A stretch of DNA of 21,045 nt from Breznakia blatticola (lineage in GTDB: Bacteria; Bacillota_I; Bacilli_A; Erysipelotrichales; Erysipelotrichaceae). The stretch covers positions 1-21,045 of the forward strand of contig NZ_SODD01000042.1 in NCBI RefSeq assembly GCF_004365815.1, given 5' to 3'. Made by a program: the position numbers and the translations under genes. A model generated the notes under the pieces. It was not told the DNA's origin. It did no database searches and saw only the letters and a list, made by a program, of their open reading frames with translations. Shown here in pieces: positions 2,412-16,562 of the stretch; positions within the stretch are counted from its first letter, which is position 1, and the number at the start of each line of letters is the position of its first letter.

Positions 2412-2440
2412 AAATTAAGTAAAATTAACTTAAATTAAGT
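2412..2440. repeat. Three helically phased 10-bp repeats abutting the -35 of the antiterminator promoter
   Basis: AAATTAAGT (2412-2420), AAATTAACT (2422-2430) and AAATTAAGT (2432-2440), with exact 10-bp periodicity. An inverted near-copy ACTTAATTA lies at 2377-2385. Confidence 0.6.
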
Positions 2441-2468
2441 TGACAACGCTTTCATAATTCATTATTAT
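2440..2468 (+). promoter_or_regulatory. Sigma-A promoter of the antiterminator-PTS unit
   Basis: TTGACA (2440-2445), 17 nt of spacer, then TATTAT (2463-2468). SD TAGGAG lies 8 nt before the ATG at 2516. Confidence 0.6.
2441..2454. promoter_or_regulatory. cre-like (CcpA) box overlapping the -35
   Basis: tTGACAACGCTTTCAt matches the cre consensus WTGNAANCGNWNNCW with one mismatch (C for A at position 5). It has the central CG and TG...CA ends. Confidence 0.4.
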
Positions 2469-2515: not shown

Positions 2516-3343
2516 ATGAAAGTGATTCGAAATATCAATAACAATGTCGCTGTCTGCGTTGATGACAACAATCATGAAGTTATTGCGTTTGGAAAAGGAA
2601 TCGGCTTTCAAAAAGCTCCATATGAGGTTTCATTAGATAAGATTGATCAAACATACTACAACTTAGATTCACACTATATCGCTTTACTTGATGAATTGCC
2701 TGCTGAGATTATGGAAGTTACGACGGAAATTGTTAAGAAAGGTAGAGCATATCTACAAGTTGATTTTAATAAGAGTTTCTTCTTCACGTTGTGTGATCAT
2801 ATACATTTTGCAGTTGAAAATGCTAAAAAGGGGCTTGTGATAAGTAACCCTATGGTAAATGAGATTCAACATTTATATGATAATGAAATCTTACTAGGAA
2901 GATGGGCAATTAAACACATTGAAAAAACAATGTCCGTAAAATTGCCAGAAAGTGAAGCGGGTGGAATTGCATTACATTTTATTAATGCGATGCAATCAAA
3001 GAAAACCACAACAGAAAAAGATGAAATTGAATATTTTGTTGAAGATGTTACAAATATCATCGAAAGTGAAATGAATCTGATTGTAGATCGAAGCGACTTT
3101 AGTTATTCGCGCTTTGTGACACACTTAAAATACTTGTTAAAACGTTCAAAGAACTTAGATAAGGCAAGTTCTGCAAATGTTGCAATGTATGAACAAGTGT
3201 TTCAACAGTATCCTGAATTAGCGGGAACTGTTGGGAAAATTAAAAACTATATTATGAATGAACTACATATAGAACCAAGTAAAGAGGAACTTCTATATTT
3301 GATCATGCATATCAATCGACTTTGTGCAAAAGAAGGATTGTAA
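2516..3343 (+). CDS. BglG/LicT/SacY-family transcription antiterminator (CAT RNA-binding domain plus PRD1 and PRD2)
   Basis: The N-terminal CAT motif is MKVIRNINNNVAVCVDDNNHEVIAFGKGIGF. Four conserved PRD histidine contexts are present: LCDHIHFAVENAK, GGIALHFINA, RFVTHLKYLL and LYLIMHINRL. The 275-aa length is typical. Confidence 0.9.
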   Translation: MKVIRNINNNVAVCVDDNNHEVIAFGKGIGFQKAPYEVSLDKIDQTYYNLDSHYIALLDELPAEIMEVTTEIVKKGRAYLQVDFNKSFFFTLCDHIHFAVENAKKGLVISNPMVNEIQHLYDNEILLGRWAIKHIEKTMSVKLPESEAGGIALHFINAMQSKKTTTEKDEIEYFVEDVTNIIESEMNLIVDRSDFSYSRFVTHLKYLLKRSKNLDKASSANVAMYEQVFQQYPELAGTVGKIKNYIMNELHIEPSKEELLYLIMHINRLCAKEGL

Positions 3344-3362
3344 CCTTAAGAGGGCTTTACCT
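3335..3362 (+). promoter_or_regulatory. RAT-like (ribonucleic antiterminator) element overlapping the antiterminator stop codon
   Basis: GGATTGTAACCTTAAGAGGGCTTTACCT compared with B. subtilis RATs (GGATTGTTACTG....CAGGCAAAACCT). The 5' part GGATTGTnAC is conserved. The 3' part is GGC-TTT-ACCT where RATs have GGC-AAA-ACCT. The 3' end runs into the left arm of the terminator at 3360. Confidence 0.5.
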
Positions 3363-3419
3363 GATGTACATAGACAGAACTGTTTTTGTTTTGTCTTTGT
3401 GTATCAGGTTTTTATTTTA
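3360..3419 (+). terminator. Long conditional intrinsic terminator between the antiterminator gene and the PTS gene
   Basis: ~21-bp stem, CCTGATGTACATAGACAGAAC (3360-3380) pairing with 3388-3408. It has 1 mismatch and 3 G.U pairs. The loop is 7 nt and it is followed by TTTTTATTTT. Confidence 0.8.
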
Positions 3420-3501: not shown

Positions 3502-4914
3502 ATGGCAAAATATACAGAACTTTGTAATCAAATTCTAGAAAATGTCGGTGGAAAAGATAACGTATCAGGTGCAGTACACTGTATGACTAGATTGCGATTA
3601 AATGTAAAAGATCGTTCAAAAGTGAATGTAGAAGAAGTTAGAAAAATTAAAGGAACTGTAGGGGCTCAGTTTTCAGGAGATCAGTTCCAAATTATTATTG
3701 GGCAACATGTCTCTGATGTGTATCCAGAATTTTGTAAGTTAGCAGGAATCAGTGCAGCAGATGCAATTGATGAAAATTTAGATTCAGAACCATTTAGTTT
3801 AAAAGCAGTTCCATCTAAAGTATTAGATTATGTATCAGGATCTGTAGCACAAATCATTCCAATTATGATGGGTGCTGGATTCTTCAAAATGTTCTATGCA
3901 ATCTTAGGACCAGATTTAATGAATGTAATGCCTAATGAATCACAATTCATGCAAATGCTTTATTTAGTAGGAAACGCAGGTTTTTACTTTATGCCAATAT
4001 TTGCTGCATGGGGTGCTGCGAAAAAGTTAAATACAAGTATTCCAATTGCGTTGCTTTTAGGAGCATTGCTTGTTGACCCTAACTTTATAAATATTGTAGC
4101 AGCTGGTGAACCATTTAATGTATATGGATTTATTCCAATGCAATTAAATAACTACACACAATCATTAATTCCAATTTTATTATCTGTTTGGGCGTTGAAA
4201 TACGTTTGGAGATTCTTAAACAAAATTATGCCTAGTGCGATTAAGGTTATTGGAGTTCCATTTGTTGCGGTTGTGATTATGGTACCACTTATGTACTGTG
4301 GACTAGCACCTATTGGAAACTGGATTGGTGAAGGAATCGCTATTATTGTAAATACTCTATACGATGTTGCTGGACCATTTGCGATTGCATTTATTGGAGC
4401 ATTCTGGATGTTCATGGTGGCAACAGGTATGCATATTGCAGCAATTCAAATTGCATTTATTAATATTGCTACCTTAGGATATGATCCAATCGTACTTGCG
4501 GGGTCAAATATTGCAAACTATGCATTAATGGGAATGATTGTTGCATACTTTATTCGTACAAAAAATGAAGAAAAACAAATGGCTGCAGCAAATATGATTA
4601 CTCTACTTGTTGGTGGAATTTCAGAGCCAACCCTATTTGGAGTACTACTTCGTAATAAACGTGCAATGATTGTACAAGTTATTGGTGGATTTGTTGGTGG
4701 CCTTGTTGGTGGCCTACTAGGTGTTGCAGTTTATACACTTGGAGCAGCCAACGTACTAACTGTTCTTCAATATGCAGGAGGACCTGGATCAAACTTTGTG
4801 AATGCGTGTATTGCATGTGGTGTCGCATTTGTGGTTGCTTTAGTTGTTGGAGTTGTTATTGGCTTCAATGATGATAGCAATGGAGAAGGATTCAAACTGT
4901 TCAAAAAGAAGTAA
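3502..4914 (+). CDS. PTS transporter subunit EIIBC, glucose/beta-glucoside/sucrose (Glc) superfamily; no EIIA domain
   Basis: The N-terminal EIIB has the phospho-Cys motif VHCMTRLRL. A polytopic EIIC follows. At 470 aa there is no room for a fused EIIA. SD GAGAGGA lies 9 nt upstream. Confidence 0.9.
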   Translation: MAKYTELCNQILENVGGKDNVSGAVHCMTRLRLNVKDRSKVNVEEVRKIKGTVGAQFSGDQFQIIIGQHVSDVYPEFCKLAGISAADAIDENLDSEPFSLKAVPSKVLDYVSGSVAQIIPIMMGAGFFKMFYAILGPDLMNVMPNESQFMQMLYLVGNAGFYFMPIFAAWGAAKKLNTSIPIALLLGALLVDPNFINIVAAGEPFNVYGFIPMQLNNYTQSLIPILLSVWALKYVWRFLNKIMPSAIKVIGVPFVAVVIMVPLMYCGLAPIGNWIGEGIAIIVNTLYDVAGPFAIAFIGAFWMFMVATGMHIAAIQIAFINIATLGYDPIVLAGSNIANYALMGMIVAYFIRTKNEEKQMAAANMITLLVGGISEPTLFGVLLRNKRAMIVQVIGGFVGGLVGGLLGVAVYTLGAANVLTVLQYAGGPGSNFVNACIACGVAFVVALVVGVVIGFNDDSNGEGFKLFKKK

Positions 4915-4936: not shown

Positions 4937-4970
4937 AAAGGTTCAAGATGTTACTTGAACCTTTATTTAT
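4937..4970. terminator. Bidirectional terminator shared by the convergent PTS and LacI-family genes
   Basis: Perfect 11-bp stem AAAGGTTCAAG / CTTGAACCTTT with loop ATGTTA. A T-rich run follows on the plus strand (TTTATTTAT) and a T6 run on the minus strand (TTTTTTCTAT). Confidence 0.7.
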
Positions 4971-5965
4971 ATCGAATTGCGAAGTATAAGTTCCGTATTG
5001 ATTTCAATTTTTACATGCATGTTGTCATGGTCACGAATAGAACTCAATAGACGTTTCGCAGCAACAACACCCATGTATGATTTTGGAACATGAATTGTGG
5101 TAAGCGGTGGATCTACATACGTTGCATAAGGAATGTTATCAAAACCGATGATAGATACATCTTCTGGTACTCGATATCCTTTTTCCTTTAAAGCACGCAT
5201 TGCACCAATCGCAATTTCATCATTATCTGCAAAATAGCATGTGGCAATGGGTTCGTTATGATTCAAAATTTCTAACATGTCTGCATACGCTCCATCAAGA
5301 GATGGAGATAGATGATGAATAATCGATTTTGATGTTGGCATAGAATTCTTGCGAACGGCATTAAAGAAGCCGAGAGTACGCTCACTAAAGTTGACGATAT
5401 TCTGTGTGGAATGTAAATATCCAGGTTGTTCATGTCGCTTCTTAATTAAGTAGTCAGTTGCGGTTTCCGCACTATCCACGTTATTGATGGTTACACAATC
5501 TGCATTCACATTTGGAAAGTAAGAATCAAGTAACACTAAAGGAATATCAAGTTTCTGAAATGGTTCAAAGTCATCACGTGACATGGTTGTTCCTAACAGA
5601 AGGATACCTTCAAAATTGTAGGATTGAATGGATTTGATTTTTTCATGAATATCATCGAGATCGTGTATATGAAGAGCAAAAAGCTGATACCCATTTTCCT
5701 TGATGACTTGTTCGACACTTGTTGCAAGTTCAGTAAAAAAGGGTGTATCAAATACAAAGTTCTTATGAAAGAAAATAAATGCGATTGTGTTAGAGCGAAA
5801 GTTCTTTTGATTGATTCGCGTAAAATCATATCCCATTTCTGTAGCTACATCGATAATTTGATGTCGCATCTCTACACTAACGCCGGGTTTATTATTAAGT
5901 GCCATTGAGACAGCAGCTGCAGATATCCCCATCTTCTCGGCAATTTGTTTCGCTGTTACTTTCAT
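4967..5965 (-). CDS. LacI-family transcriptional regulator
   Basis: The N-terminal HTH_LacI motif is MKVTAKQIAEKMGISAAAVSMALNNKPGVSVEMRHQIIDVATEMGY. The C-terminus is a periplasmic-binding-protein-like sugar-binding fold (SIIGFDNIPYATYVDPPLTTI). SD GGAGG lies 6 nt upstream. Confidence 0.9.
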   Translation of the reverse strand: MKVTAKQIAEKMGISAAAVSMALNNKPGVSVEMRHQIIDVATEMGYDFTRINQKNFRSNTIAFIFFHKNFVFDTPFFTELATSVEQVIKENGYQLFALHIHDLDDIHEKIKSIQSYNFEGILLLGTTMSRDDFEPFQKLDIPLVLLDSYFPNVNADCVTINNVDSAETATDYLIKKRHEQPGYLHSTQNIVNFSERTLGFFNAVRKNSMPTSKSIIHHLSPSLDGAYADMLEILNHNEPIATCYFADNDEIAIGAMRALKEKGYRVPEDVSIIGFDNIPYATYVDPPLTTIHVPKSYMGVVAAKRLLSSIRDHDNMHVKIEINTELILRNSI

Positions 5966-5989
5966 TTGAATCCTCCTAGTTGTAATTCA

Positions 5990-6018
5990 ATTATAAAGTA
6001 AATTAAGCAAAATGTAAG
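5990..6018 (-). promoter_or_regulatory. Probable promoter of the LacI-family gene
   Basis: On the minus strand: CTTACA (6018-6013), 17 nt of spacer, then TATAAT (5995-5990). It is overlapped by the imperfect palindrome TTGTAATT-C-AATTATAA (5980-5996). Confidence 0.4.
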
Positions 6019-6054
6019 AGTATAAGTGAAAATTAAGTAAAAAGGAGTTAATAC

Positions 6055-7539
6055 ATGATTAAACAAATCAAAGAAATTCCCATCACCAATGATAGTTATC
6101 CTTTTGCAAGTGCAAGTCGATATCTAGATCTTGATGCATATGGGTATGTAGAAAAAGAATATTATATCGACGGTCTAGCGAATGTATATGAAAGTATAGG
6201 GAATACAGGTGAAGTTCGTGTTGCATATGAAAATGTTGCATACCGAAATCGTATCATCGTTCGAGCACCAAAAGAAGTAACGAAAGCAAGCGGTAATGTT
6301 GTAATTGAAATCATAAATCCAACCTCATTTATGGAAATTGATCGAATGTGGATTTTAACGCATGAGAAATTCATGCGTGATGGAGATATCTATGTTGGAA
6401 TTACTAGTAAACCGAATACTATTGCCAAGATGGTTGCATTTGATAAAAAACGATATGAAAGTCTACAATGGCCAAATCCACGAGAAGATGTAGAACTGCC
6501 ATTTACAAATGAACAACTACTTGCAAGTGGGTTACTTCCAGATGTAAATATTGAATATGAACCTGGTTTGTTTTGGGATATGTTGAGTAATCTTGCTTGG
6601 ATGCTTAGAAGTGATGATGTACAAAATCCTATTGCTACGTATCCACATACATATGTGTACTTAACTGGATGGTCAAAATCTGCATGTTATGTATTTCGAT
6701 ATGTAAACAGTTTTGCATATCGCAAAGAAGTCGCAAAAGATTCGCAAGTATTTGATGGTTATCTTGCAGGTGGTGGAGTGCGCTCAATGGTTGTTCCTGT
6801 GAATCAATATGAATCATTATATGCATATGATTATCGACTCAAACGTGTAGAAAAGGTAAAACAACCTTTTATATCTATTCAAACAGAAAGTGAAAATGGC
6901 TGGTTTGATGCGTTTCGTACGAAACGTCAGGACAGTGATCATCCAAACTTCTTATATCGTGAATATGAAATTGCTGGTGCTAGTCATGACACGATGTTTA
7001 GTTATGTGGATTACTACAAACAAGATGAAGATTTAAAACGAATTGATATGTTACCTAAGTATGATGCAAAACATGCATATGGCAATAACTACCCATCACA
7101 GTTTGCATTTGCAGCAGGATTTAAGAATCTATTTCGTTGGGTTCGTGAAGGTGTTGGACCAGCAAGTTGTATGCACATTGCAATGGATGAACAAGGAAAT
7201 AATCGTAAAGATGCTTTTGGAAATAGTATTGGTGGATTACGTACATGTTTACTAGATTATCCAACTGGACAATATGGTATTGCTAGCACAATTGAAAAAG
7301 GAAAAAGTTTCTTAGATGCAACAGCAACAACGAATCCACTATTTGGATACGAACAACCATTTCCTGCCAGCATGCTTGAAGTGTTATATCAAGATGCAAA
7401 ACAGTATACTGCTTTATGCAAAGAACATACAAAAGAACAAGTATCAAAAGGATTTATCTGTAAAGAAGATGAAGAAGCACTTATTAACTTTGCGGTAAAT
7501 CTAGCAATAGAAAGAGGATTACCAATTTGCAAAAAGTAG
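6055..7539 (+). CDS. Alpha/beta-hydrolase-domain protein of unknown specificity (resembles the 'Abhydrolase_10' type); cytoplasmic
   Basis: The N-terminal pattern YVEKEYYIDGLANVY...YRNRIIVRAPKE...SGNVVIEIINPT matches my memory of that family. There is a nucleophile-elbow-like LTGWSKSA and a late AGASHD (candidate His). No signal peptide. SD AAAGGAG. Family assignment is from memory only. Confidence 0.55.
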   Translation: MIKQIKEIPITNDSYPFASASRYLDLDAYGYVEKEYYIDGLANVYESIGNTGEVRVAYENVAYRNRIIVRAPKEVTKASGNVVIEIINPTSFMEIDRMWILTHEKFMRDGDIYVGITSKPNTIAKMVAFDKKRYESLQWPNPREDVELPFTNEQLLASGLLPDVNIEYEPGLFWDMLSNLAWMLRSDDVQNPIATYPHTYVYLTGWSKSACYVFRYVNSFAYRKEVAKDSQVFDGYLAGGGVRSMVVPVNQYESLYAYDYRLKRVEKVKQPFISIQTESENGWFDAFRTKRQDSDHPNFLYREYEIAGASHDTMFSYVDYYKQDEDLKRIDMLPKYDAKHAYGNNYPSQFAFAAGFKNLFRWVREGVGPASCMHIAMDEQGNNRKDAFGNSIGGLRTCLLDYPTGQYGIASTIEKGKSFLDATATTNPLFGYEQPFPASMLEVLYQDAKQYTALCKEHTKEQVSKGFICKEDEEALINFAVNLAIERGLPICKK

Positions 7540-9125
7540 AAAGATATCGAACAACTATTTTGTCTTTTGAAAGCAAAAAGGAATATGCGAATCCATTTTT
7601 GGATTGTATCATCCAAGCAACTTTCACTGGGCCTAATCAAGAAACCATTGTTCGTGAAGCATATTGGGATGGTGCAAACACATACAAAATTGCCTTTGCA
7701 CCTACAATGGTAGGAACTTGGACATATCAGCTACAAGCAAGTGAAGATAGTGGATTGCATCAATACACTGGTGAAGTAATCTGTGTACCATATGAAGGAA
7801 ATCTATCTATTTACAAACATGGGTTTGTGAAAGTCAGTGATACGAAAACCTATTTTACATATGCAGATGGAACCCCTTTTTTCTGGTTAGGTGATACGCA
7901 TTGGGAATTTGCCTATAAAGAATCTTGGGATACATCCAATCACCCGAAAATGAATAGTATGTTTAAAGGCATGGTAAATCGTCGAGTAGAGCAAGGATAC
8001 AATGTGTATCAAACCAACTTGCGAAGTGATGCAATGATGGGGTTTGAAAAAAACTATTGGCAAGAAAAAGATATTCCAAATGTGCAATTCTACCAAGAAG
8101 AATTGGATCGTAGAATGTACTGCCTAGCAGATCATGGAATTGTAAATGCATTAGGTTTGGCATGGTTTATGTCAATTGAAAACAATGTGGATACATATAA
8201 ACACTTAGCACGCTATATCATTGCACGTTATGGTTCTTTACCAATGATATGGACACTTGCTGGTGAGGTTGGTGGATATGATAAACAAAGACAACCTTTC
8301 TATATTGAAAATTGGCGATATGTCGCTAAAGAAATACAAAAGTATGATGGATATCACCATCCACTAACTGCACATTATACAAATGAACGTCCTTTTGCTT
8401 CATATTATCAAGATGAGGAATGGCTTGATTTTACACTTAATCAAGCAGGACATGGAGACTATGTAGTAAGTATTGATGACTATCATGAATTTCTAAGTAA
8501 ACATAGAGATATGCCATTTATTGAAGGTGAATGCTTTTATGAATTTTGTTCGACGCTTGAAGAAAACGGTCCAAGATTGTGTAGTGCAGATATGATGCGA
8601 CGTGTTGCATATGTAAGTATCCAAGCAGGTGGCTGTGGATATACATATGGGGCACAAGGAATTTGGGATTGTGTATATGAAAAAAATCAACCCAATACGA
8701 TGTCGCTATTTAATCGCTATGACATTACATGGTATGAAGCAATCGATGGTATCGGAGGATATCAAATGGGCTACATGAAGAAATTTTATGAGCAGCAACA
8801 ATTTTGGCTACTTTCACCATATAAACAAGAAAGCGAAATCATCAAAAATCCATTTGGGAAAAAATTGCCTGCCGTAAGTATGAATAAAGAACACACACAT
8901 TATGTTCTATACTACAGTGAATCTACACGAAAAAGTGGAAATCTAGAAGGGCTTAGTAATGGAGCGTATATCTTGGAATGGTTTAACCCAAGAAGCGGTG
9001 AATATGAAATGAAAGAAAATGTAGAAATAGAGAATCATACATTTAGCATACCAACCAAACCAGATACAAATGACTGGTGCTTGGTATTAAAGAAGAAGGA
9101 AGAACACACGTATGAAGAAAATTAA
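7527..9125 (+). CDS. DUF5060 (N-terminal Ig-like) + DUF4038 (GH140-like TIM barrel) + C-terminal beta-sandwich glycoside-hydrolase-like protein; cytoplasmic
   Basis: The hallmark DGTPFFWLGDTHWE motif sits at the start of the DUF4038 barrel. Also present are IWTLAGEV, NQAGHG, the YVSIQAGGCGYTYGAQGIWD region, and a C-terminal YILEWFNPRSGEY typical of the 'collagen-binding-like' beta-sandwich. The TTG start at 7527 has SD GAGGA 8 nt upstream and overlaps the upstream gene by 13 nt. No signal peptide. Confidence 0.75.
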   Translation: MQKVERYRTTILSFESKKEYANPFLDCIIQATFTGPNQETIVREAYWDGANTYKIAFAPTMVGTWTYQLQASEDSGLHQYTGEVICVPYEGNLSIYKHGFVKVSDTKTYFTYADGTPFFWLGDTHWEFAYKESWDTSNHPKMNSMFKGMVNRRVEQGYNVYQTNLRSDAMMGFEKNYWQEKDIPNVQFYQEELDRRMYCLADHGIVNALGLAWFMSIENNVDTYKHLARYIIARYGSLPMIWTLAGEVGGYDKQRQPFYIENWRYVAKEIQKYDGYHHPLTAHYTNERPFASYYQDEEWLDFTLNQAGHGDYVVSIDDYHEFLSKHRDMPFIEGECFYEFCSTLEENGPRLCSADMMRRVAYVSIQAGGCGYTYGAQGIWDCVYEKNQPNTMSLFNRYDITWYEAIDGIGGYQMGYMKKFYEQQQFWLLSPYKQESEIIKNPFGKKLPAVSMNKEHTHYVLYYSESTRKSGNLEGLSNGAYILEWFNPRSGEYEMKENVEIENHTFSIPTKPDTNDWCLVLKKKEEHTYEEN

Positions 9126-10512
9126 ACTTGGTTTTGCACCTACAAGAAGAAGTATATTTTCAGCTCCAGCAGCAGAACAATATGCAAATTTAACAAGAAA
9201 GAAATTAGAAGAACTACAAATTGAATTTGTCGATATTAAAGAATTTAGTAGTGATGGATTATTGCATGATGATCGTGATCGAATAGAAATCGAAGCATAT
9301 TTCAAACAAGAAAAGATTGATGGTTTATTTGTGCCACATGGAAATTTTGGAACCGAATATGAAGTTGCTCGACTTGCTAAAGCACTAGACGTTCCCGTTT
9401 TATTATGGGGTCCTAGAGATGAAAGACCAAATGAAGAAGGTATTCGTCTTCGTGATAGTCTATGTGGATTATTTGCTACAGGTAAAGTATTACGTCGATT
9501 TCAAGTACCATTTACATACTTATGTAATTGCGATTTAGATGATCCTGAATTCGAAAGAGGAATTAAGAATTTTATTGCGGTGTGTAATGTTGTAAAAGCA
9601 TCTAAAGATATGCGCATCTTACAAATAGGACCACGTCCATTTGATTTCTGGTCAACGATGTGTAATGAAGGAGAATTATTAGAAAAATTTAATGTACAAC
9701 TTGCACCAATTCCTTTACCAGAACTAACAAAAGAAATGAACTTGGTAAAACAAGAAGAAACGGAAGTAGAAAAAACCATTGCATATTGTAAAGAGAACTT
9801 CAATATCGCTATTACAGATGAACAATTGGAAAATGTAGCAGCTTTGAAAGTCGCAATGCGCAATCTAGCAAAAGCGTATGGATGTCGTGCAATCGCAATT
9901 CAATGTTGGAATGCATTACAAGATGAAATTGGAATCATGCCATGTGCAGCAAATAGTTTGCTAAATGAAGAAGGATTACCAGTTGTTTGTGAAACTGATA
10001 TTCATGGAGCAATTACATCAATATTGGTTGAAGCAGCAGGCATGGATGAAGCAAGAAGTTTCTTTGCTGATTGGACCGTTCGTCATCCAGATAATGATAA
10101 TGCTGTTCTGTTGCAACACTGTGGACCTTGGCCTATTTCATGCGCTGCATGTAAACCAACGATTGGTTATCCGCTAGCATTCTCTTATCCTGGAACTGTT
10201 GAAGCACAAGCAAAACAATCTGACATGACACTTTGCCGTTTTGATGGTGACAATAGTGAATACTCTTTACTGCTAGGAAAAGCAAAAGGAGTAGAAGGGC
10301 CATATACAAAAGGAACCTATGTGTGGGCAGAAGTAGAAAATTGGAAGCGATTAGAAGCAAAAATCGTGGAAGGACCATATATTCATCATTGTGTAGGAAT
10401 TCATAAAGACATTGTGCCAATACTATATGAAGCATGTAAGTATATCGGAATTACTGTTGATCTATATGATGAGAATGAAGAAGAAGTAAAGGCATATATA
10501 CGAGGTGAATAA
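9112..10512 (+). CDS. L-fucose/L-arabinose isomerase superfamily protein (aldose-ketose isomerase, substrate unknown)
   Basis: Size (466 aa) and motifs are typical of FucI/AraA-like family proteins: KLGFAPTRR at the N-terminus, LRDSLCGLFATGKVL, VCETDIHGAITS (metal/catalytic Glu-Asp region) and LLQHCGPWP. The ATG overlaps the upstream gene by 14 nt. Confidence 0.75.
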   Translation: MKKIKLGFAPTRRSIFSAPAAEQYANLTRKKLEELQIEFVDIKEFSSDGLLHDDRDRIEIEAYFKQEKIDGLFVPHGNFGTEYEVARLAKALDVPVLLWGPRDERPNEEGIRLRDSLCGLFATGKVLRRFQVPFTYLCNCDLDDPEFERGIKNFIAVCNVVKASKDMRILQIGPRPFDFWSTMCNEGELLEKFNVQLAPIPLPELTKEMNLVKQEETEVEKTIAYCKENFNIAITDEQLENVAALKVAMRNLAKAYGCRAIAIQCWNALQDEIGIMPCAANSLLNEEGLPVVCETDIHGAITSILVEAAGMDEARSFFADWTVRHPDNDNAVLLQHCGPWPISCAACKPTIGYPLAFSYPGTVEAQAKQSDMTLCRFDGDNSEYSLLLGKAKGVEGPYTKGTYVWAEVENWKRLEAKIVEGPYIHHCVGIHKDIVPILYEACKYIGITVDLYDENEEEVKAYIRGE

Positions 10513-10513
10513 A

Positions 10514-11332
10514 ATGAATGAATTAAAGAGAAAAAGTTACGAATTACGAAAAGATATTATTGAAATGATGTATGCATCAAAAGCAGGACATGTCGGAGGG
10601 GACTTAAGTGTTGTAGACATTTTAACTGTACTGTATTTTGAAATTATGAATATTGATCCAAAGAATTTTGAAGATCCAAATCGTGATCGTTTCTTATTAA
10701 GTAAAGGGCATTGTGCAGATGCATTATTTGCAGTATTAGGAGAACGTGGATTTTATGATAAACAAGAAGCAATCCAAACATTTTCAAAGTATAATTCAAA
10801 GTTTATTGGACATCCTAATACCGAAGTGCATGGAGTAGAAATTAACTCAGGATCACTGGGTCATGGCTTATCTATTGGTGTTGGTATGGCGTTAGCTGCC
10901 AAAATGAATGATCAAGAATATCGTACATATGTCGTACTTGGAGATGGTGAAATGGCAGAAGGTTCTAACTATGAAGCAATGATGGCTGCTAGTCAATATC
11001 ACCTAGATAATTTATGTGCCACAATCGATGTAAATGGATTACAGATTAGTGGAACTACAGATGAAGTGATGTCCACTGCTTCACTAGCAAATAAATTTGC
11101 TGATTTTGGGTGGCATGTAATTGAAGTAGCAGATGGAAATGATTGTATGCAATTAGTCGATGCGTATACACAAGCGATGCAAATGAAGGAAAAACCAACA
11201 GTAGTGATCGCTCATACAGTAAAAGGCAAAGGTGTCTCTTACATGGAAAATCAAAAAAGTTGGCATCATGGTGTGATGAATGAAGAGCAGTATAAACAAG
11301 CCATTCGTGAAATTGAGGAGGTTCTAGCATGA
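10514..11332 (+). CDS. Transketolase, N-terminal (thiamine-diphosphate-binding) subunit
   Basis: Motifs GHVGGDLSVVDILTVLYF, SKGHCADALFAVL, GSLGHGLSIGVGMALA and VVLGDGEMAEGSNYEA (GDG TPP motif). I prefer ATG 10514 (SD GAGGTG 6 nt upstream) over the listed GTG at 10505. Confidence 0.9.
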   Translation: MNELKRKSYELRKDIIEMMYASKAGHVGGDLSVVDILTVLYFEIMNIDPKNFEDPNRDRFLLSKGHCADALFAVLGERGFYDKQEAIQTFSKYNSKFIGHPNTEVHGVEINSGSLGHGLSIGVGMALAAKMNDQEYRTYVVLGDGEMAEGSNYEAMMAASQYHLDNLCATIDVNGLQISGTTDEVMSTASLANKFADFGWHVIEVADGNDCMQLVDAYTQAMQMKEKPTVVIAHTVKGKGVSYMENQKSWHHGVMNEEQYKQAIREIEEVLA

Positions 11333-12255
11333 GTACAATAACAAATCGACAAGCTATCTGCGATGTATTGGTGGAGCAAGCAAAAAATGACAAGGATATT
11401 GTCGTGGTGTGTTCTGATTCACGAGGGTCTGCATCACTTGCAACTTTTGCATCAACATATCCAAAACAATTCGTAGAAGTCGGCATTGCCGAACAAAATC
11501 TTGTTGGTATTTCAGCAGGACTAGCAAGTTGTAATAAAAAAGTATTTGCAGCATCCCCAGCAAGTTTTATTAGTACACGTAGTTATGAGCAAGTGAAAGT
11601 TGATGTTGCATATTCAAATACAAATGTCACACTTATTGGTATTAGTGGAGGAGTCAGCTATGGTGCACTAGGGATGACACATCATTCATGCCAAGATTTT
11701 GCAGCGATGTGTGCACTTACTGGAATGCGTGTATATTGTCCAAGTGATCGCTTTCAAACGACAAAACTTATGCAAGCATTACTAGAAGATGATAAACCAG
11801 CATATATTCGTGTAAGTCGCTCAGCAACCGAAGATGTATATGATGAAACGATTGATTTTCAATTTGATAAAGCAAACGTAATTCAACAAGGGACAGATGT
11901 TGTATTGATCGCATGTGGAGAAATGGTACCATATGCCAAAAAAGCAGCAAAGCAGTTGGAAGCATTAGGTATTTCCACTGGACTCATTGACATGTATTGT
12001 TTAAAACCATTTGATCAAGAAACGTTATTCGAGCAAACAAAACAGGCAAAACTTGTGGTCAGTATTGAAGAACATGCACCTCAAGGAGGACTTGGTAGTT
12101 TTGTTGCTCAAGCATTATCTATGCACCAACCAAAACGAATGATACAATTATGTTTACCAGATGAACATTTGATTTCAGGAACAAATAAAGAAATGTTTGC
12201 ATACTACGGATTGGATGAAGATGGGATTGTTAAAGCAGTCCAAAATGCATTATGA
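11329..12255 (+). CDS. Transketolase, C-terminal (pyrimidine-binding plus C-terminal domain) subunit
   Basis: Motifs FVEVGIAEQNLVGISAGLA and IGISGGVSYGALGMTHHSCQDFA. ATGA start/stop overlap with the N subunit. SD GAGGAGG. Confidence 0.9.
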   Translation: MSTITNRQAICDVLVEQAKNDKDIVVVCSDSRGSASLATFASTYPKQFVEVGIAEQNLVGISAGLASCNKKVFAASPASFISTRSYEQVKVDVAYSNTNVTLIGISGGVSYGALGMTHHSCQDFAAMCALTGMRVYCPSDRFQTTKLMQALLEDDKPAYIRVSRSATEDVYDETIDFQFDKANVIQQGTDVVLIACGEMVPYAKKAAKQLEALGISTGLIDMYCLKPFDQETLFEQTKQAKLVVSIEEHAPQGGLGSFVAQALSMHQPKRMIQLCLPDEHLISGTNKEMFAYYGLDEDGIVKAVQNAL

Positions 12256-13703
12256 GTTACATTCTAAGCATTGATCAAAGTACGCAAGGAACGAAAGCTA
12301 TACTCTTTGATGATAAAGGAAATATTGTAAAACGTGTTGATAAAGCACATCAACAGTTGATTGATGCAAATGGATATATTTCGCATGATCCAAATGAAAT
12401 CTTTGATAATGTTGTAAGTGTAGTTTCTGATGTGATTGCACAAAGCAAAATTGATGCAAATACAATTCAAGCAGTAGGGATTAGTAATCAAAGAGAAACA
12501 ACAGTTATGTGGGATGCAGATGGTCATACATTAGCAAATGCTGTGGTATGGCAATGTTCAAGAGCAAGTGAAATTGCCAAACGATATGAACCGTATAAAG
12601 ACGATATCTTTGATATAACAGGTCTTGTATTATCACCGTATTTTCCAGCAAGTAAGATGCGTTGGTTAATTGAATATGTGCAACCACAAGCACCATACTA
12701 TTTTGGTACAATGGACACTTGGTTAATTTACAAACTAACCAACCAACAAGTATATAAAACGGATGCATCGAATGCATCAAGAACACAGTTGTTTGATATT
12801 CATACAGGAACTTGGTCGAATTACTTATGTAATTTGTTTGAAATTCCTAAGCAAGCATTGCCTGAAGTTTGTGATAGTAATGCATGCTTTGGGTATACAG
12901 ATTTCGTCGGATTACTAGAAAAGCCGATTCCAATATGTGCAGTTATGGGGGACTCGCACGCATCACTTTATGGGCAAGGTTGTCATGCGCAAGGACAAGT
13001 AAAAACAACACTAGGTACGGGTTCATCAATTATGATGAATATTGGAGATAGTTATAAAAAAAGCACGAATGGTCTAACGACATCACTTGCTTGGAAAATT
13101 GATGGAAAACTTGAATATGTTTTTGAAGGAAATGTTAATTATGCTGGTGCAGTAATTACTTGGCTTCAAAAGGATTTACAACTTATAGATGAACCAGATG
13201 ATACAATAGAAGCAATAGCAAGAAGTAATCCAGATGATGAAACGATTCTTGTGCCCGCTTTTTCTGGATTATCTGCACCATATTGGAAAGAAGATGTTCG
13301 TGCATTATTTTATGGGATGAGTCGTACCACAAAAAGAAATGAATTAATTAAAGCGACTGTAGAAAGTATCGCTTTTCAAATAAGTGATGTTCTCCACGCG
13401 ATGGCTAAAGATAGTGGGTTGCATTCATTAGAAGTAAAAACGGATGGTGGGCCAAGTAAAAATCCATATCTCATGCAATTTTTAAGTGATATGGCACGTG
13501 CCACTGTCTATGTATCGAGCCAAGAAGAACTATCCGCTATTGGTGTTGCGTATATGGCAGGAATAAAAATGGAGATATATCATAAAGAAACGATCTTTTC
13601 TAAGCAAACTTACAAAATATATGAAACGAAAATGGAAATATCATTATGGAAGCAATACATGGATCGATGGAACCATGCAATAGCGGTCTTATTACATACA
13701 TAG
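12252..13703 (+). CDS. FGGY-family carbohydrate kinase, glycerol-kinase-like subgroup (substrate unknown)
   Basis: Motifs YILSIDQSTQGTKAILFD, GISNQRETTVMWD, VVWQCSRA, and GDSHASLYGQG in the FGGY_C region. ATGA overlap with the upstream gene. Confidence 0.9.
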   Translation: MSYILSIDQSTQGTKAILFDDKGNIVKRVDKAHQQLIDANGYISHDPNEIFDNVVSVVSDVIAQSKIDANTIQAVGISNQRETTVMWDADGHTLANAVVWQCSRASEIAKRYEPYKDDIFDITGLVLSPYFPASKMRWLIEYVQPQAPYYFGTMDTWLIYKLTNQQVYKTDASNASRTQLFDIHTGTWSNYLCNLFEIPKQALPEVCDSNACFGYTDFVGLLEKPIPICAVMGDSHASLYGQGCHAQGQVKTTLGTGSSIMMNIGDSYKKSTNGLTTSLAWKIDGKLEYVFEGNVNYAGAVITWLQKDLQLIDEPDDTIEAIARSNPDDETILVPAFSGLSAPYWKEDVRALFYGMSRTTKRNELIKATVESIAFQISDVLHAMAKDSGLHSLEVKTDGGPSKNPYLMQFLSDMARATVYVSSQEELSAIGVAYMAGIKMEIYHKETIFSKQTYKIYETKMEISLWKQYMDRWNHAIAVLLHT

Positions 13704-13712
13704 GAGGAGTAT

Positions 13713-14966
13713 ATGTTAACAATTTCAGAGAATAAAAAAACACTGTTGAAAGATGAAAAACCTTTCTTCTATTTAGCAGATACATGCTGGTCAGCATTTA
13801 CAAATATTACAGATGATGAATGGGATTATTATTTGTATAAACGAAAAGTACAAGGATTTAATACCATTCAAATAAACATTCTTCCACAATGGGATGCATC
13901 TGCAACGGATTTGGTATATGAACCATTTGTTGATCATGATCCATATCAAATCAACGATGCATATTTTGAACACGCAAAAGAAATGTGTAAAAAGGCAAAA
14001 GCACAAGGATTTGAACTTGCACTTGTTGTATTGTGGTGTAATTATGTACCAGGTACATGGGCATCAAATTTTATGAAGGACCATATTTTACCATTTGATT
14101 GTTTGGATGGATACATTACGAAGGTTGATGAAACATTCTCAGAGTTTCAACCAATGTATGTCATTAGTGGAGATACAGATTTTGAAACCGATGAGACGAT
14201 ATCGTATTATGTAAAAGCAGCAGCTACATTGAAAAAACTTGCTCCTAAGTGCTTATATACAACACATATCAAAGGACGTTATACATATATTCCAGAAAAT
14301 CTATATGCATATTTAGATTTCCTATTTTATCAAAGTGGTCACAATGCACAGGATTTATCCATGCCATATTCTTTAAGTGAAACTATGCAACAAACATATC
14401 CTGACAAACCATTAATTAACTCTGAACCATGTTACGAAGAAATGGGGTATTCTCGTCAAATGTATGGACGATGGACACGTTATGATGTGCGTCGTGCCGC
14501 ATATGTAAGTGTACTATCTGGTGCATGTGCAGGTATAACATATGGAGCAGGAGGGATTTATAGCTGGCATAAAGTGAACAAGAGTTTCGCTAAATTTCTT
14601 GGAGAAGGATTTGATGATCCAAAATCGTGGGAAGAAGCGATGGCATTTCCAGGTGCTTGGGATTACGGGTATCTTAAAACAATGCTAGAAAACTTAAATA
14701 TACAAAGTCTAGAAGCACGACAAGATCTTTTGCTAAATGACACAAATGATATTCGCGTAGCTAAAGCAAATAATGGAATATATCTTGTCTATGTTCCTTG
14801 TAATACAAAGGTACGTTTAGATTTAGATTGTAGTGCGTACAAACTGCAAACCATTGATTTAGAGAACCGATTTGTTGCAAATACAGCATATGAAATCAAA
14901 GAAGGAAAAACGATTCTAGCAATACATCCATTCCAAGATGATGTGCTAGTTGTTATTAAAAAATAA
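13713..14966 (+). CDS. DUF4038 (GH140-like) glycoside-hydrolase-like protein, short form without the DUF5060 domain; cytoplasmic
   Basis: KPFFYLADTCWSAF corresponds to PFFWLGDTHWE of the 7527 gene. FYQSGHN and YVSVLSGACAGITYGAGGIYSWH align with the paralogue. SD AGGAGG lies 5 nt upstream. No signal peptide. Confidence 0.75.
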   Translation: MLTISENKKTLLKDEKPFFYLADTCWSAFTNITDDEWDYYLYKRKVQGFNTIQINILPQWDASATDLVYEPFVDHDPYQINDAYFEHAKEMCKKAKAQGFELALVVLWCNYVPGTWASNFMKDHILPFDCLDGYITKVDETFSEFQPMYVISGDTDFETDETISYYVKAAATLKKLAPKCLYTTHIKGRYTYIPENLYAYLDFLFYQSGHNAQDLSMPYSLSETMQQTYPDKPLINSEPCYEEMGYSRQMYGRWTRYDVRRAAYVSVLSGACAGITYGAGGIYSWHKVNKSFAKFLGEGFDDPKSWEEAMAFPGAWDYGYLKTMLENLNIQSLEARQDLLLNDTNDIRVAKANNGIYLVYVPCNTKVRLDLDCSAYKLQTIDLENRFVANTAYEIKEGKTILAIHPFQDDVLVVIKK

Positions 14967-15012: not shown

Positions 15013-15042
15013 AAGATCTGCAAAAAAATGTAGATCTTTTTT
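15013..15042 (+). terminator. Operon-end intrinsic terminator
   Basis: AAGATCTGCA / TGTAGATCTT is a 10-bp stem with one G.U. The loop is A-rich and it is followed by TTTT. Confidence 0.75.
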
Positions 15043-15074
15043 ATATGACACGTATAGGTATTTTGCATGGTTGT

Positions 15075-15083
15075 TGTTATACT
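15075..15083 (+). promoter_or_regulatory. Extended -10 (TGtTATACT) placed 6 nt before ATG 15090
   Basis: TGTTATACT at 15075-15083, then AAAGTT, then the ATG. No SD. Confidence 0.4.
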
Positions 15084-15089
15084 AAAGTT

Positions 15090-15728
15090 ATGAAGACTCA
15101 AAACCAATTAAATAAAATTTGTATATTTAGTGAATCTCATGAGTTCTTGTGGGAGAATTTCTTGCGTCGAAATCCTGTTTTGAAAATAGATTTGGATACA
15201 AATATAAAAACATGTTATCCAAGTTCGTATTATGTAAATGGAGTTGAGTATCATATTCCATATCGCATTGGCTATGAAGTAAAAAAACTAAAGCACTCCA
15301 ATACGCATGAAAAAGTGATTGCATACTGTCTTATGAGTCGACATCATAATGGATTTGTGCGAGAGAAATATCTCAAAAAATTACTAAAGAAAAAATATTT
15401 TCAACAATATCCATTTGTAGTAGCGTATGTGCTGCGTCTTGTTGGTGAGTATGTTGAAGAAATATGGGATGTTGTATACGAACATAAACATTTGTTTGAT
15501 AATGAAACAACAAGAGTATTTATTTATGAAAATGATCGGTTCATAGATAAGATGTTTCAAAGAAGTTACTCATATTTTAGCAATAATCGTTTTGGTGAAC
15601 CCTTTAAGAAACGATATCTAATGAATCCGATAATTTGTAAAGGACCTTTGCTGAATGGATCTTCCAATTATAAACTATTATCATATGTAGTAAGTCTTAA
15701 ACAAGTGATATATCGAGAAGATATATAG
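15090..15728 (+). CDS. Hypothetical protein, no family recognised
   Basis: Long ORF with host-like composition. The listed start at 15045 sits inside the upstream terminator T-tract and has no SD. The internal ATG at 15090 lies 6 nt after an extended -10, giving a candidate leaderless start. The start is uncertain. Confidence 0.55.
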   Translation: MKTQNQLNKICIFSESHEFLWENFLRRNPVLKIDLDTNIKTCYPSSYYVNGVEYHIPYRIGYEVKKLKHSNTHEKVIAYCLMSRHHNGFVREKYLKKLLKKKYFQQYPFVVAYVLRLVGEYVEEIWDVVYEHKHLFDNETTRVFIYENDRFIDKMFQRSYSYFSNNRFGEPFKKRYLMNPIICKGPLLNGSSNYKLLSYVVSLKQVIYREDI

Positions 15729-15821: not shown

Positions 15822-16562
15822 ATGAAAACGTATAAGACAAATGAACTAGCAAAGCAATTTCAGATTCATGCAAATACAGTTCGCTTGTATGAGGGACAAC
15901 ACTTCATCAGCAAAGCAAAAAGATTAAAAAATGGATATCGTCAATTTGATGAAATCCATTTTTGGCAGTTATTCATTTGTCGAAAGATATTTGAGTTTCC
16001 TTACTCCAATTCAAGAATCCGCAAATCTGGAATTGACATTATTTATGCAAGTGGTTCACAGAAAGTTGAACTACTTGATGAAAAACTTGCGGTATATCGT
16101 TCTATTATCTTAGAAGAATTGCAGAAAGCACAACGTGCAAATCAGCTTCTTCTAGATTGGTTGAACGACCAAACAATAGAAGAAGAAACGCATTATTATA
16201 CACGTAAAGAAATTGCGTCGATATTAGATACAACTAAAGAAACTGTTCGTAATTGGGAGAGAAATGATCTAGTTCAGACAACCCTTCTAGAGGATCCACA
16301 GCAACGTTACTTTAATGAAGAAGCATTGAAACGTTGTAGAATTATTTATCTACTTCGTCAAGTTGGTTTTAGTATGCATGCAATCTATCAATGTCTTCAT
16401 GCATTAGATACGAATGATGCTTCATTAAATCTTTCTAAGGAAGAGGCTTTTTCTGCAGGAGATCGCTGGTTAATTGAACTAAACTCACTTTTTAACTCGA
16501 TTCCTTCATTAGAAGAAGCAGTTGATAAATTAAAAACCCTACACTTGCTCACCAACCTGTAA
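15822..16562 (+). CDS. MerR-family transcriptional regulator with two tandem MerR-type HTH domains
   Basis: The first HTH is YKTNELAKQFQIHANTVRLYEGQHFI...NGYRQFDE. The second is YYTRKEIASILDTTKETVRNWERNDLV...QQRYFNEEALKRCRIIYLLRQVGFSMHAI. Confidence 0.8.
   Translation: MKTYKTNELAKQFQIHANTVRLYEGQHFISKAKRLKNGYRQFDEIHFWQLFICRKIFEFPYSNSRIRKSGIDIIYASGSQKVELLDEKLAVYRSIILEELQKAQRANQLLLDWLNDQTIEEETHYYTRKEIASILDTTKETVRNWERNDLVQTTLLEDPQQRYFNEEALKRCRIIYLLRQVGFSMHAIYQCLHALDTNDASLNLSKEEAFSAGDRWLIELNSLFNSIPSLEEAVDKLKTLHLLTNL

Follow-up and report, generated by a model that had tools for sequence, protein, structure and literature searches.

A Breznakia blatticola operon joining a probable D-apiose transketolase core to cytoplasmic GH140-family hydrolases

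Introduction

Apiose occurs in the cell walls of all vascular plants, in rhamnogalacturonan II (RG-II) and apiogalacturonan, and a D-apiose route consisting of the isomerase ApsI, a kinase and the transketolase AptA/AptB was reportedly described by Carter et al. in 2018. Here, we analyse a 21,045-bp stretch of DNA (hereafter, the window) from Breznakia blatticola, a cockroach-gut bacterium of the Erysipelotrichaceae (Bacillota), in which an isomerase, a kinase and a split transketolase are encoded in one operon with two members of glycoside hydrolase family 140 (GH140) and an α/β-hydrolase, next to a sugar phosphotransferase system (PTS). The fate of apiose in the gut is known mainly from the Proteobacteria, for its catabolism, and from Bacteroides, for its periplasmic release by the GH140 enzyme BT1012.

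The characterised pathway was taken from PMC13001218, from a preprint that contains the AplK accession and from annotated clusters (MetaCyc PWY-8089; AplK, EC 2.7.1.233, UniProt Q6D5T8). The aplK, aptA and aptB genes of Escherichia coli SE15 are ECSF_RS02700, RS02710 and RS02715, and strains of E. coli (ST131 among them) and E. fergusonii that carry the cluster can grow with D-apiose as their only source of carbon (PMC13001218). The E. coli cluster is without the apsI isomerase gene of the Pectobacterium cluster, and apiose degradation in Clostridia and Bacteroides had, according to the same source, already been noted by Carter et al. (PMC13001218). More than 1,200 plant secondary glycosides carry apiose (PMC10602602).

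Results

A conserved module of isomerase, split transketolase and kinase

We identified seven tightly coupled open reading frames (ORFs) on one strand of the window, between positions 6055 and 14966 (Table 1). Within these, the interval 9112-13703 contains a co-located and translationally coupled isomerase, FGGY kinase and split transketolase, and neither an aldolase nor an epimerase. The same families were found in a Rahnella aquatilis cluster, which consists of a solute-binding protein, a DUF2291 protein, an ATPase, a permease and a SorC regulator, followed by aptA, aptB, a "fucose isomerase" of 472 aa and an FGGY kinase. We additionally identified the four catabolic families of the window in Pasteurella testudinis and in a Bryobacterales genome, and FucI-like (PF02952) isomerases in the aptAB clusters of Rahnella, Klebsiella, Pasteurellaceae and Vibrio. 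The NCBIfam score profiles of the window and Rahnella proteins are almost superimposable, with the transketolase subunits matching the same models.

We conclude that the locus is most probably a Gram-positive member of the D-apiose transketolase pathway, and consider apiose catabolism a highly probable function of its core. A preliminary description of this DNA had read the combination of apiosidase-family hydrolases, isomerase, kinase and split transketolase as an apiose route, and this is supported by the enzyme families, the transporter homology, the active-site motifs and the GH140 neighbours detailed below. What that description termed a variant lies in the front end of the system, i.e. 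the cytoplasmic GH140 proteins, the α/β-hydrolase and the PTS, and not in the catabolic chemistry. The presence of the core outside the Proteobacteria is probably not new; the literature searched on apiose or GH140 in connection with PTS or transketolases contained no mention of the embedding of the core among GH140 genes, of a PF20091 partner or of repeated coupling to PTS.

We investigated the distribution of the module by scanning one genome per species with the window isomerase, which retrieved more than 590 matching stretches; counts of loci given here refer, unless otherwise stated, to the best 80. The isomerase is 73-84% identical across these loci, which come from different species of Bacillota. 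A survey of gene order, as suggested in the preliminary description, revealed that the core order of LacI (usually divergent), isomerase, transketolase N subunit, transketolase C subunit and FGGY kinase is kept in nearly all of them, with a homologous LacI gene adjoining the isomerase gene in 62 of the 80, mostly divergent and just upstream. Clostridium saccharoperbutylacetonicum and the actinobacterium Coriobacterium glomerans also have the core set, in rearranged form. This arrangement is far beyond chance, and the conservation of both order and gene set across loci indicates that the four core genes form one functional cassette with its own repressor.

Six of the loci (L048, L057, L069, L073, L078 and L081, from Ruminiclostridium cellobioparum and others) join the core to a transporter composed of a solute-binding protein, a DUF2291 protein, an ATPase and a permease, with its genes ordered as in the transporter of the E. 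coli apiose cluster. The clostridial and E. coli solute-binding proteins are 43-47% identical, the DUF2291 proteins 22-28%, the ATPases 48% and the permeases 50-55%. Solute-binding proteins are said to have been the anchor of the original discovery of the apiose pathway. The window itself contains no ATP-binding cassette (ABC) transporter.

Further observations concern the composition and the neighbours of the core. The transketolase subunits and kinase of loci L003-L082 fall into two classes of identity to the window proteins (approximately 50-57% and 67-80%), with the isomerase at 73-84% throughout, suggesting either that the isomerase is under much stronger constraint or that its partner genes have been exchanged. 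GH78 α-L-rhamnosidases recur beside the core (L024:5921-8587 and six to seven other loci; also L088:17221-19476), which would fit the use of rhamnosyl-apiose side-chain fragments of RG-II, such as are reportedly released by Bacteroides thetaiotaomicron. Nucleoside-hydrolase-like proteins (PF01156 or PF07632 Sde182_NH-like) were found beside the core in five Firmicute loci (L054:7616-8533 among them), and two more adjoin the FucI-like isomerase in the Bryobacterales cluster (L092:9416-12063); these could be alternative furanosidases for apiosides. Finally, two Lachnospiraceae loci (L038:7895-8713 and L045:7832-8608) contain a short-chain dehydrogenase/reductase (SDR) just upstream of the core that is 41-42% identical to an SDR of the E. 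coli apiose cluster, in which two SDRs replace the isomerase.

Active-site signatures of the core enzymes

For the transketolase, the C subunit was aligned with 66 members of its family, with AptB from three Enterobacterales, with human transketolase and with the split enzyme of Carboxydothermus (6YAJ). The active-site stretch that reads H-A-G-L-T-V-G-E-D-G-A-S-H-Q in canonical transketolases was found to be S-G-G-V-S-Y-G-A-L-G-M-T-H-H in the window protein and N-A-G-A-S-Y-G-P-L-A-S-T-H-H in AptB, such that the window subunit has in common with AptB the changes of His to Ser/Asn, of Glu-Asp to x-Leu and of Gln to His. All 66 family members contain the pattern S-G-G-[IV]-S-Y-G-[AES]-L-G-M-[TS]-H-H, and the His and Glu-Asp of the canonical H...G-E-D-G...H-Q are missing from every one of them. 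In E. coli TktA numbering, the replaced positions are His461, which binds the substrate phosphate, and Asp469 (yeast Asp477), which reads the configuration of the hydroxyl next to the cleaved bond; the catalytic His473 is retained. Apulose-4-phosphate has a tertiary C3, without the hydroxyl of ordinary sugar substrates, and the loss of the Asp would fit a donor of this type. We propose that the N and C subunits are the equivalents of AptA and AptB, respectively.

We additionally compared the C subunit with 150 representatives from a 50%-identity library. The nearest clusters all contain the window-type motif, the canonical H...G-E-D-G...H-Q appears only from approximately rank 51, and the enterobacterial AptB cluster stands at rank 138. 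A neighbour-joining tree (without support values) resolves AptB, the window clade and a small number of related clades into one non-canonical superclade, apart from the canonical split transketolases. The same representatives (P0121-P0270, from a search with window positions 11329-12255) show a large variety of non-canonical stretches at this site, which suggests that many unexplored transketolase-like specificities may exist.

The kinase contains the motifs WQC, GDSH and GTGSS, which are invariant in 68 members of its family and common to the kinases of the E. coli and Rahnella apiose clusters, where Staphylococcus aureus GlpK instead contains WQS, GDQQ and GTGGF. Phe270 of GlpK lies in the GTGGF motif and packs against glycerol; a Ser at this position would enlarge the pocket for apulose, a 2-substituted glycerol. 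Only these pocket motifs discriminate between the two kinds of kinase, as over all columns 21 family-invariant residues are shared solely with the apiose-cluster kinases and 23 solely with GlpK. We propose the protein to be an apulose kinase.

Finally, for the isomerase, the match to Fucose_iso_C (PF02952) is marginal at 30.1 bits, against 110 bits for the isomerase of the Rahnella cluster. It is backed by a full-length match to the NCBIfam SftI model (116 bits) and by the AlphaFold model (pLDDT 86), which superimposes on L-arabinose isomerases with TM scores of 0.80-0.83 and on L-fucose isomerases with approximately 0.70. The catalytic and metal residues E294, D296, H336, H425 and H426 are invariant across window-type and proteobacterial isomerases, and we propose that the window protein is a D-apiose isomerase, converting apiose to apulose. 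The preliminary description had suggested that the isomerase and kinase might be non-orthologous replacements of the characterised enzymes; both in fact belong to the families found in the proteobacterial clusters, and are only divergent (26% and 36% identity, respectively).

GH140-family hydrolases and their α/β-hydrolase partner

Both GH140 proteins match the catalytic (β/α)8 domain PF13204 well above its gathering cut-off of 26.5 bits, with scores of 210 bits for the protein encoded upstream of the isomerase (GH140 "a") and 284 bits for that encoded downstream of the kinase (GH140 "b"). Clustering of the ORFs identified PF13204 as the commonest neighbour after the five core families, in 31 of the 80 loci, where in most cases the gene directly follows that of the kinase or precedes that of the isomerase. 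We found four architectures: DUF5060 with PF13204 and DUF5605; PF13204 with Collagen_bind_2, as in BT1012; DUF5060 with PF13204, as in "a"; and PF13204 alone, as in "b". A metagenome scan with GH140 "b" retrieved only five close loci, which are informative on gene arrangement and of no use for statistics.

Among solved structures, both window proteins are closest to 8T9W, 4QFU and BT1012 (3KZS/5MSY), with 8T9W at the top (E = 2.6e-28 for "b", which keeps the G-D and E-P-x-Y-E catalytic motifs). The deposited name of 8T9W is "Apiosidase"; an activity name is thus carried by a GH140 entry other than BT1012, which the preliminary description had supposed to be the only characterised one. The catalytic pair of BT1012 is Asp187 and Glu284, and Glu stands in place of the catalytic Asp in 17% of the GH140 family (PMC4032388). 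The pairs of the window proteins were read from alignments to 3KZS and 8T9W: aligned to 3KZS, "a" has a Glu/Glu pair, with Asp187 replaced by the Glu of "LAGE" and Glu284 matched by the Glu of "EGEC"; "b" has the Asp/Glu pair. Both proteins are candidate β-D-apiofuranosidases, of which "b" would act on the product of the PTS, and their family and genomic context tip the balance towards a release of apiose. None of the three hydrolases of the operon has room for a signal peptide, since their domains begin at residues 3-8, indicating that all three are cytoplasmic.

The α/β-hydrolase (PF20091) has homologues of 50-70% identity in Clostridium, Coriobacterium and Bifidobacterium. Its gene lies directly before a DUF5060-GH140 gene in C. 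saccharoperbutylacetonicum, Coriobacterium, L094 and L095, as it does in the window. The G-W-S207-Q-S nucleophile elbow and the histidine of G-A-S-H-D (H311) are invariant in 41 homologues, consistent with a putative serine esterase. It is possible, at somewhat less than an even chance, that this esterase acts on the same substrate as the GH140 proteins. Celery contains natural 6''-acetyl and 6''-malonyl apiosylglucosides (PMC10278068), which prompted our guess that the protein might de-acylate acylated apiosides or cleave glycosyl esters.

In Bifidobacterium sp. LC6 (L090:5070-10485), the PF20091 hydrolase is flanked by major facilitator superfamily transporters and esterases, with a DUF5060-PF13204-DUF5605 protein nearby and no apiose core within 9 kb. 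The PF20091/GH140 pair may serve other glycosides as well.

Recurrent association with phosphotransferase systems

The preliminary description had the operon linked to a PTS. The adjacency stands and recurs in other genomes; the PTS genes themselves lie outside the operon, in a separate upstream unit with the divergent LacI gene in between, and in the window adjacency is the only tie. This unit contains a LicT/BglG-type antiterminator gene, which is also kept beside the PTS in L005, L096 and L097, and a leader with a sequence resembling a ribonucleic antiterminator (RAT), which we assigned by eye from its likeness to the known consensus. The EIIBC protein scores 373 bits with the NCBIfam model of the β-glucoside PTS subfamily, under the cut-off of 615 bits, and is a candidate importer of an apiose-containing glycoside.

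We identified PTS genes adjoining the hydrolase genes in six arrangements, involving two PTS families. These are LicT-PTS, LacI and operon (Breznakia, Floccifex and L094); PTS-Abhydrolase_10-GH140a-GH140b (L095); LicT-PTS-GH140a-GH140b followed by the core (L096); core-LacI-PTS EIIBCA-GH140b type (three Lacrimispora species, in which a 47% homologue of GH140 "b" is encoded directly 3' of the EIIBCA gene); Abhydrolase_10-GH140a-EIIC of the lactose/cellobiose type (C. saccharoperbutylacetonicum); and, in one string, Abhydrolase_10-GH140a-EIIC-EIIB-isomerase-transketolase-transketolase-kinase (Coriobacterium). Because the kinase is kept where a PTS is the only transporter, the phosphate from the PTS would go to the part of the substrate other than apiose, and free apiose would be released inside the cell. 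The simplest such substrate would be an apiosyl-glucoside or apiosyl-glucose with a free Glc O-6. Whether the PTS feeds the system is, in our estimation, evenly balanced.

Proposed pathway and alternative explanations

We propose that the window contains a LacI-controlled operon for apiose-containing plant glycosides (apiosides). An apiose-bearing glycoside, in the simplest case an apiosyl-glucoside or apiosyl-glucose, would be imported and phosphorylated on its hexose by the LicT-controlled, β-glucoside-type PTS. In the cytoplasm, the α/β-hydrolase might then strip an acyl or ester substituent, this being the most tentative step, and the two GH140 hydrolases of different architecture would free D-apiose, as their family and context suggest. 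The FucI/AraA-type isomerase would convert D-apiose to apulose and the FGGY kinase apulose to apulose-4-phosphate, which would react with glyceraldehyde-3-phosphate on the split transketolase to form dihydroxyacetone phosphate and xylulose-5-phosphate. The chemistry of the steps from D-apiose onwards is that of the characterised proteobacterial pathway, and the proteins are assigned to it, by analogy, from family identity, active-site signatures and conserved context. We regard this composite explanation as probable, with most of the weight on the core and on the assignment of the hydrolases. More doubtful is a specific form of it for Gram-positive gut bacteria, whereby apiosylated glycosides imported by the PTS and phosphorylated on the hexose would lose their apiose in the cytoplasm to GH140 enzymes adapted to small phosphorylated apiosides, and PF20091, as an obligate partner of DUF5060-GH140 proteins, would provide a new carbohydrate-esterase-like activity (de-acylation or glycosyl-ester cleavage) that stands in for a phospho-β-glucosidase.

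Several observations weigh against the proposed pathway. Identities to the proteobacterial apiose enzymes are modest: 26% for the isomerase (to the 472-aa FucI-like isomerase of the Rahnella aptAB cluster), 36% for the kinase (to those of the E. coli and Rahnella clusters), 43-44% for the transketolase N subunit (to E. coli and Rahnella AptA) and 33-36% for the C subunit in pairwise comparison with its proteobacterial counterpart. These E. coli and Rahnella reference proteins are homologues of the characterised enzymes (for the kinase, of AplK Q6D5T8) and not the assayed proteins. Over aligned columns, the C subunit is 36.7% identical to the canonical Carboxydothermus enzyme (6YAJ) and 30.3% to E. 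coli AptB, and the Y-G-x-L-G-x-x-H-H motif type also occurs in other uncharacterised split-transketolase clades, and so is not confined to AptB. A database search with the Rahnella FucI-like isomerase returned no entry named "D-apiose isomerase" and no Pectobacterium member, and we tentatively equate this isomerase with the characterised ApsI by subtraction, from the difference between the E. coli and Pectobacterium clusters. The substrate specificity of the GH140 proteins is not readable from their sequences. For the α/β-hydrolase, no sequence match was found in the PDB and a Foldseek search with the AlphaFold model (pLDDT 93) retrieved only generic esterases and peptidases, with TM scores of 0.22-0.30, such that the protein has no informative structural relative. 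Lastly, the PTS forms its own transcription unit under its own antiterminator, and no 6-phospho-β-glucosidase of GH1 or GH4 is encoded in the 21-kb window.

The last two points would be accommodated if the core served apiose and the PTS were an unrelated, neighbouring β-glucoside system, with the hydrolases acting on unphosphorylated oligosaccharides taken up by a transporter encoded elsewhere. The PTS unit indeed has a promoter-like site and terminators of its own, the divergent LacI gene separates it from the operon, and most of the 80 loci are without a PTS, having instead ABC transporters (CUT1/CUT2 type) or none nearby. The six separate arrangements that place PTS genes of two families directly beside GH140 and Abhydrolase_10 genes argue against mere neighbourhood, and we consider this explanation unlikely.

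A core that handles a different aldose, branched or short-chain, to give a ketose phosphate as transketolase donor, with the DUF4038 proteins releasing that other sugar, would be consistent with the low identities (26-44%), with the many uncharacterised split-transketolase clades containing similar non-canonical motifs, with the diversity of PF13204, few members of which have a named activity, and with an isomerase that is equally near to the sulfoquinovose isomerase model and to the Rahnella isomerase. Yet four independent families match the apiose clusters together, the same core in Clostridia carries a homologue of the E. coli apiose-cluster transporter in the same order, DUF2291 included, the kinase has the pocket substitutions seen in the apiose-cluster kinases, and the accessory hydrolases come from the one glycoside hydrolase family with a named apiosidase activity. 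We give this explanation little credence.

Ordinary pentose or glycerol metabolism, in which a generic transketolase, a glycerol kinase and an arabinose/fucose-type isomerase are clustered by chance with glycosidases, is highly improbable. Automatic annotation does name the proteins "transketolase", "glycerol kinase-like" and "L-fucose/L-arabinose isomerase family", the GlpK model TIGR01311 gives 497 bits for the kinase, and the C subunit is overall as similar to a canonical split transketolase as to AptB. However, all three proteins are under the equivalog cut-offs (590 bits for GlpK, with which the Rahnella kinase scores 476 bits), the canonical transketolase His and Glu-Asp are missing throughout the family, the kinase replaces the Gln-Gln and Gly-Phe positions of GlpK, and the four genes stay together, along with a LacI repressor of their own, in 80 species. 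The reading as generic transketolase and glycerol kinase was rejected on the active-site motifs.

A sulfo-transketolase pathway, which combines a PF02952 isomerase (FucI-like, acting on sulfoquinovose) with the split transketolase SqwGH (PMC9594981), is effectively refuted by score and gene content: the sulfoquinovose isomerase SftI is the only NCBIfam match of the window isomerase beyond AraA (full length, 116 bits, E = 1.8e-33), but this is far under the cut-off of 700 bits and is equalled by the Rahnella apiose-cluster isomerase (116.5 bits), the module strictly conserves a kinase that the sulfo-transketolase pathway does not need, and neither the window nor the common neighbours included a sulfoquinovosidase, sulfoacetaldehyde reductase or sulfonate exporter.

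Operon layout and other features of the window

The seven-gene coupled operon, its junctions, its closing hairpin and its domain content, all set out in the preliminary description, were verified in the ORFs, the terminator scan and the Pfam search (Table 1). The α/β-hydrolase and GH140 "a" genes overlap by 13 nt (7527-7539, with a TTG start), and the GH140 "a" and isomerase genes by 14 nt (9112-9125). The isomerase stop at 10512 is followed, after a 1-nt gap, by the ATG of the transketolase N subunit at 10514, which is preceded by a GAGGTG ribosome-binding site; the GTG at 10505, selected as the start by the ORF tool, is probably part of this site. ATGA overlaps join the transketolase N and C genes (11329-11332) and the transketolase C and kinase genes (12252-12255), and a 9-nt gap with an AGGAGG ribosome-binding site (13704-13712) separates the kinase gene from GH140 "b".

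Promoter-like sites within the operon are below chance expectation (43, compared to 66.9 in shuffled sequence), and we claim no internal promoter. No operon promoter was identified with confidence in 5966-6054, no LacI operator palindrome was found in the same 89 bp, and Rfam gave zero matches across the window.

Table 1. Features of the 21,045-bp B. blatticola window discussed in the text.
Feature	Position	Strand	Basis and remarks
Promoter-like site	2440-2468		11/12 match
LicT/BglG-type antiterminator	2516-3343	+	Pfam CAT_RBD and two PRD; presumed regulator of the downstream PTS gene
RAT-like sequence GGATTGTAACC..., overlapping a terminator hairpin (3372-3396 and T tract)	3335-3405	+	Presumed antitermination site for the PTS gene
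PTS EIIBC, glucose/β-glucoside/sucrose family, without EIIA domain	3502-4914	+	Pfam PTS_EIIB and PTS_EIIC
Bidirectional terminator hairpin separating the convergent PTS and LacI genes	4937-4964	both	11 pairs (terminator scan)
LacI-family repressor, divergent from the operon	4967-5965	-	Pfam LacI and Peripla_BP_1/3; presumed operon regulator
Divergent intergenic region, 89 bp	5966-6054	+	AAAGGAG ribosome-binding site for the operon; presumed promoter and operator
α/β-hydrolase, PF20091 Abhydrolase_10	6055-7539	+	Pfam, 340 bits
GH140 protein "a"	7527-9125	+	Pfam DUF5060, PF13204 Apiosidase-like and Collagen_bind_2 (C-terminal β-sandwich)
FucI/AraA-superfamily aldose-ketose isomerase	9112-10512	+	Pfam PF02952 Fucose_iso_C
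Split transketolase N-terminal subunit, binding thiamine diphosphate (ThDP)	10514-11332	+	Pfam Transketolase_N
Split transketolase C-terminal subunit (Pyr and C)	11329-12255	+	Pfam Transket_pyr and Transketolase_C
Glycerol-kinase-like FGGY kinase	12252-13703	+	Pfam FGGY_N and FGGY_C
GH140 protein "b", PF13204 only	13713-14966	+	Pfam, 284 bits
Intrinsic terminator, closing the operon	15013-15046	+	Hairpin 15013-15038, 10-pair stem, then TTTTTAT (terminator scan)

Three further ORFs of the window were noted. A 227-aa ORF directly after the operon terminator (15045-15728, + strand) is matched by no Pfam or NCBIfam model, the terminator tail shows no obvious ribosome-binding site for it, and it may or may not be a gene. 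At 15822-16562 (+ strand), a MerR-family protein carries a MerR helix-turn-helix region twice, at residues 6-42 and, separately, at 126-193, in an unusual tandem. Finally, a 192-aa ORF at 283-861 (- strand) has HTH_38 as its sole domain, and could be either a small regulator or what is left, or the N-terminal portion, of an IS30-type transposase.

Discussion

The divergent version of the apiose transketolase route proposed here is widespread in Lachnospiraceae, Erysipelotrichaceae, Clostridium and Coriobacteriia, and is repeatedly wired to cytoplasmic GH140-family enzymes, to an uncharacterised family of α/β-hydrolases and to PTS or ABC importers. Its proteins are at present annotated as "transketolase", "glycerol kinase-like", "fucose isomerase family" or "hypothetical", and could be recognised by two signatures, S-Y-G-x-L-G-x-x-H-H of the transketolase C subunit and the kinase motifs WQC/GDSH/GTGSS. 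The analysis is of value mainly for this annotation and for predicting new specificities in GH140 and PF20091 that can be tested.

If a PTS-fed front end is indeed present, it would imply new substrate specificities within GH140 and a function for PF20091, and would explain how gut bacteria outside the Bacteroidetes use apiosides, or fragments with apiose left by Bacteroides. Phosphorylation of the hexose by the PTS, if correct, would additionally provide GH140 with a new subcellular setting and probably a new class of substrate, and would amount to an unrecognised route for the harvest of apiosylated metabolites in Erysipelotrichaceae, Lachnospiraceae, Clostridium and Coriobacteriia.

Comparison with known systems

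The chemistry of the core is known, and the locus is not a new kind of pathway; its pairing with cytoplasmic GH140 proteins, an esterase-like protein and a PTS is undescribed. With the proteobacterial D-apiose transketolase pathway the window shares four families (an isomerase of approximately 470 aa, transketolase subunits of approximately 275 and 310 aa encoded by overlapping genes, and the kinase), the non-canonical motif of the transketolase and the substitutions in the kinase pocket, and a homologous transporter accompanies the core in some Clostridia. In contrast, the isomerase gene comes first in the window and the transketolase genes first in the proteobacterial clusters, the regulator is LacI rather than SorC, and the window core is flanked by genes for cytoplasmic GH140 proteins, preceded by an α/β-hydrolase gene and accompanied by a neighbouring PTS, in a Gram-positive host.

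The sulfo-transketolase pathway (SqvD/SftI-type isomerase and SqwGH) likewise pairs an isomerase of PF02952 with a split transketolase forming xylulose-5-phosphate (PMC9594981). Similarly, the PTS unit resembles the LicT/BglG β-glucoside operons (bglPH of Bacillus subtilis; bglGFB and ascFB of E. coli) in its CAT/PRD antiterminator, its leader with RAT-like sequence and terminator and its EIIBC family, but is not followed by a 6-phospho-β-glucosidase gene, its recurrent neighbours being GH140-family hydrolases and the α/β-hydrolase.

Finally, for the GH140 proteins, the PF13204 domain and the catalytic pair are shared with 8T9W and with BT1012 of Bacteroides thetaiotaomicron, the founder of GH140, which cleaves D-Apif-β1,2-D-GalA (D-apiofuranosyl-galacturonic acid) of RG-II. 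BT1012 and GH140 "a" both contain a C-terminal β-sandwich, with an extra N-terminal DUF5060 only in "a". BT1012 is periplasmic and is encoded in a polysaccharide utilisation locus (bioRxiv 10.64898/2026.03.13.711244). In contrast, the window proteins, which are similar to these enzymes only at E = 1e-18 to 1e-28, have no signal peptide and are tied to a PTS and to apiose catabolism. The likely substrates of the window enzymes are small imported glycosides, whereas those of BT1012 are the side chains of RG-II.

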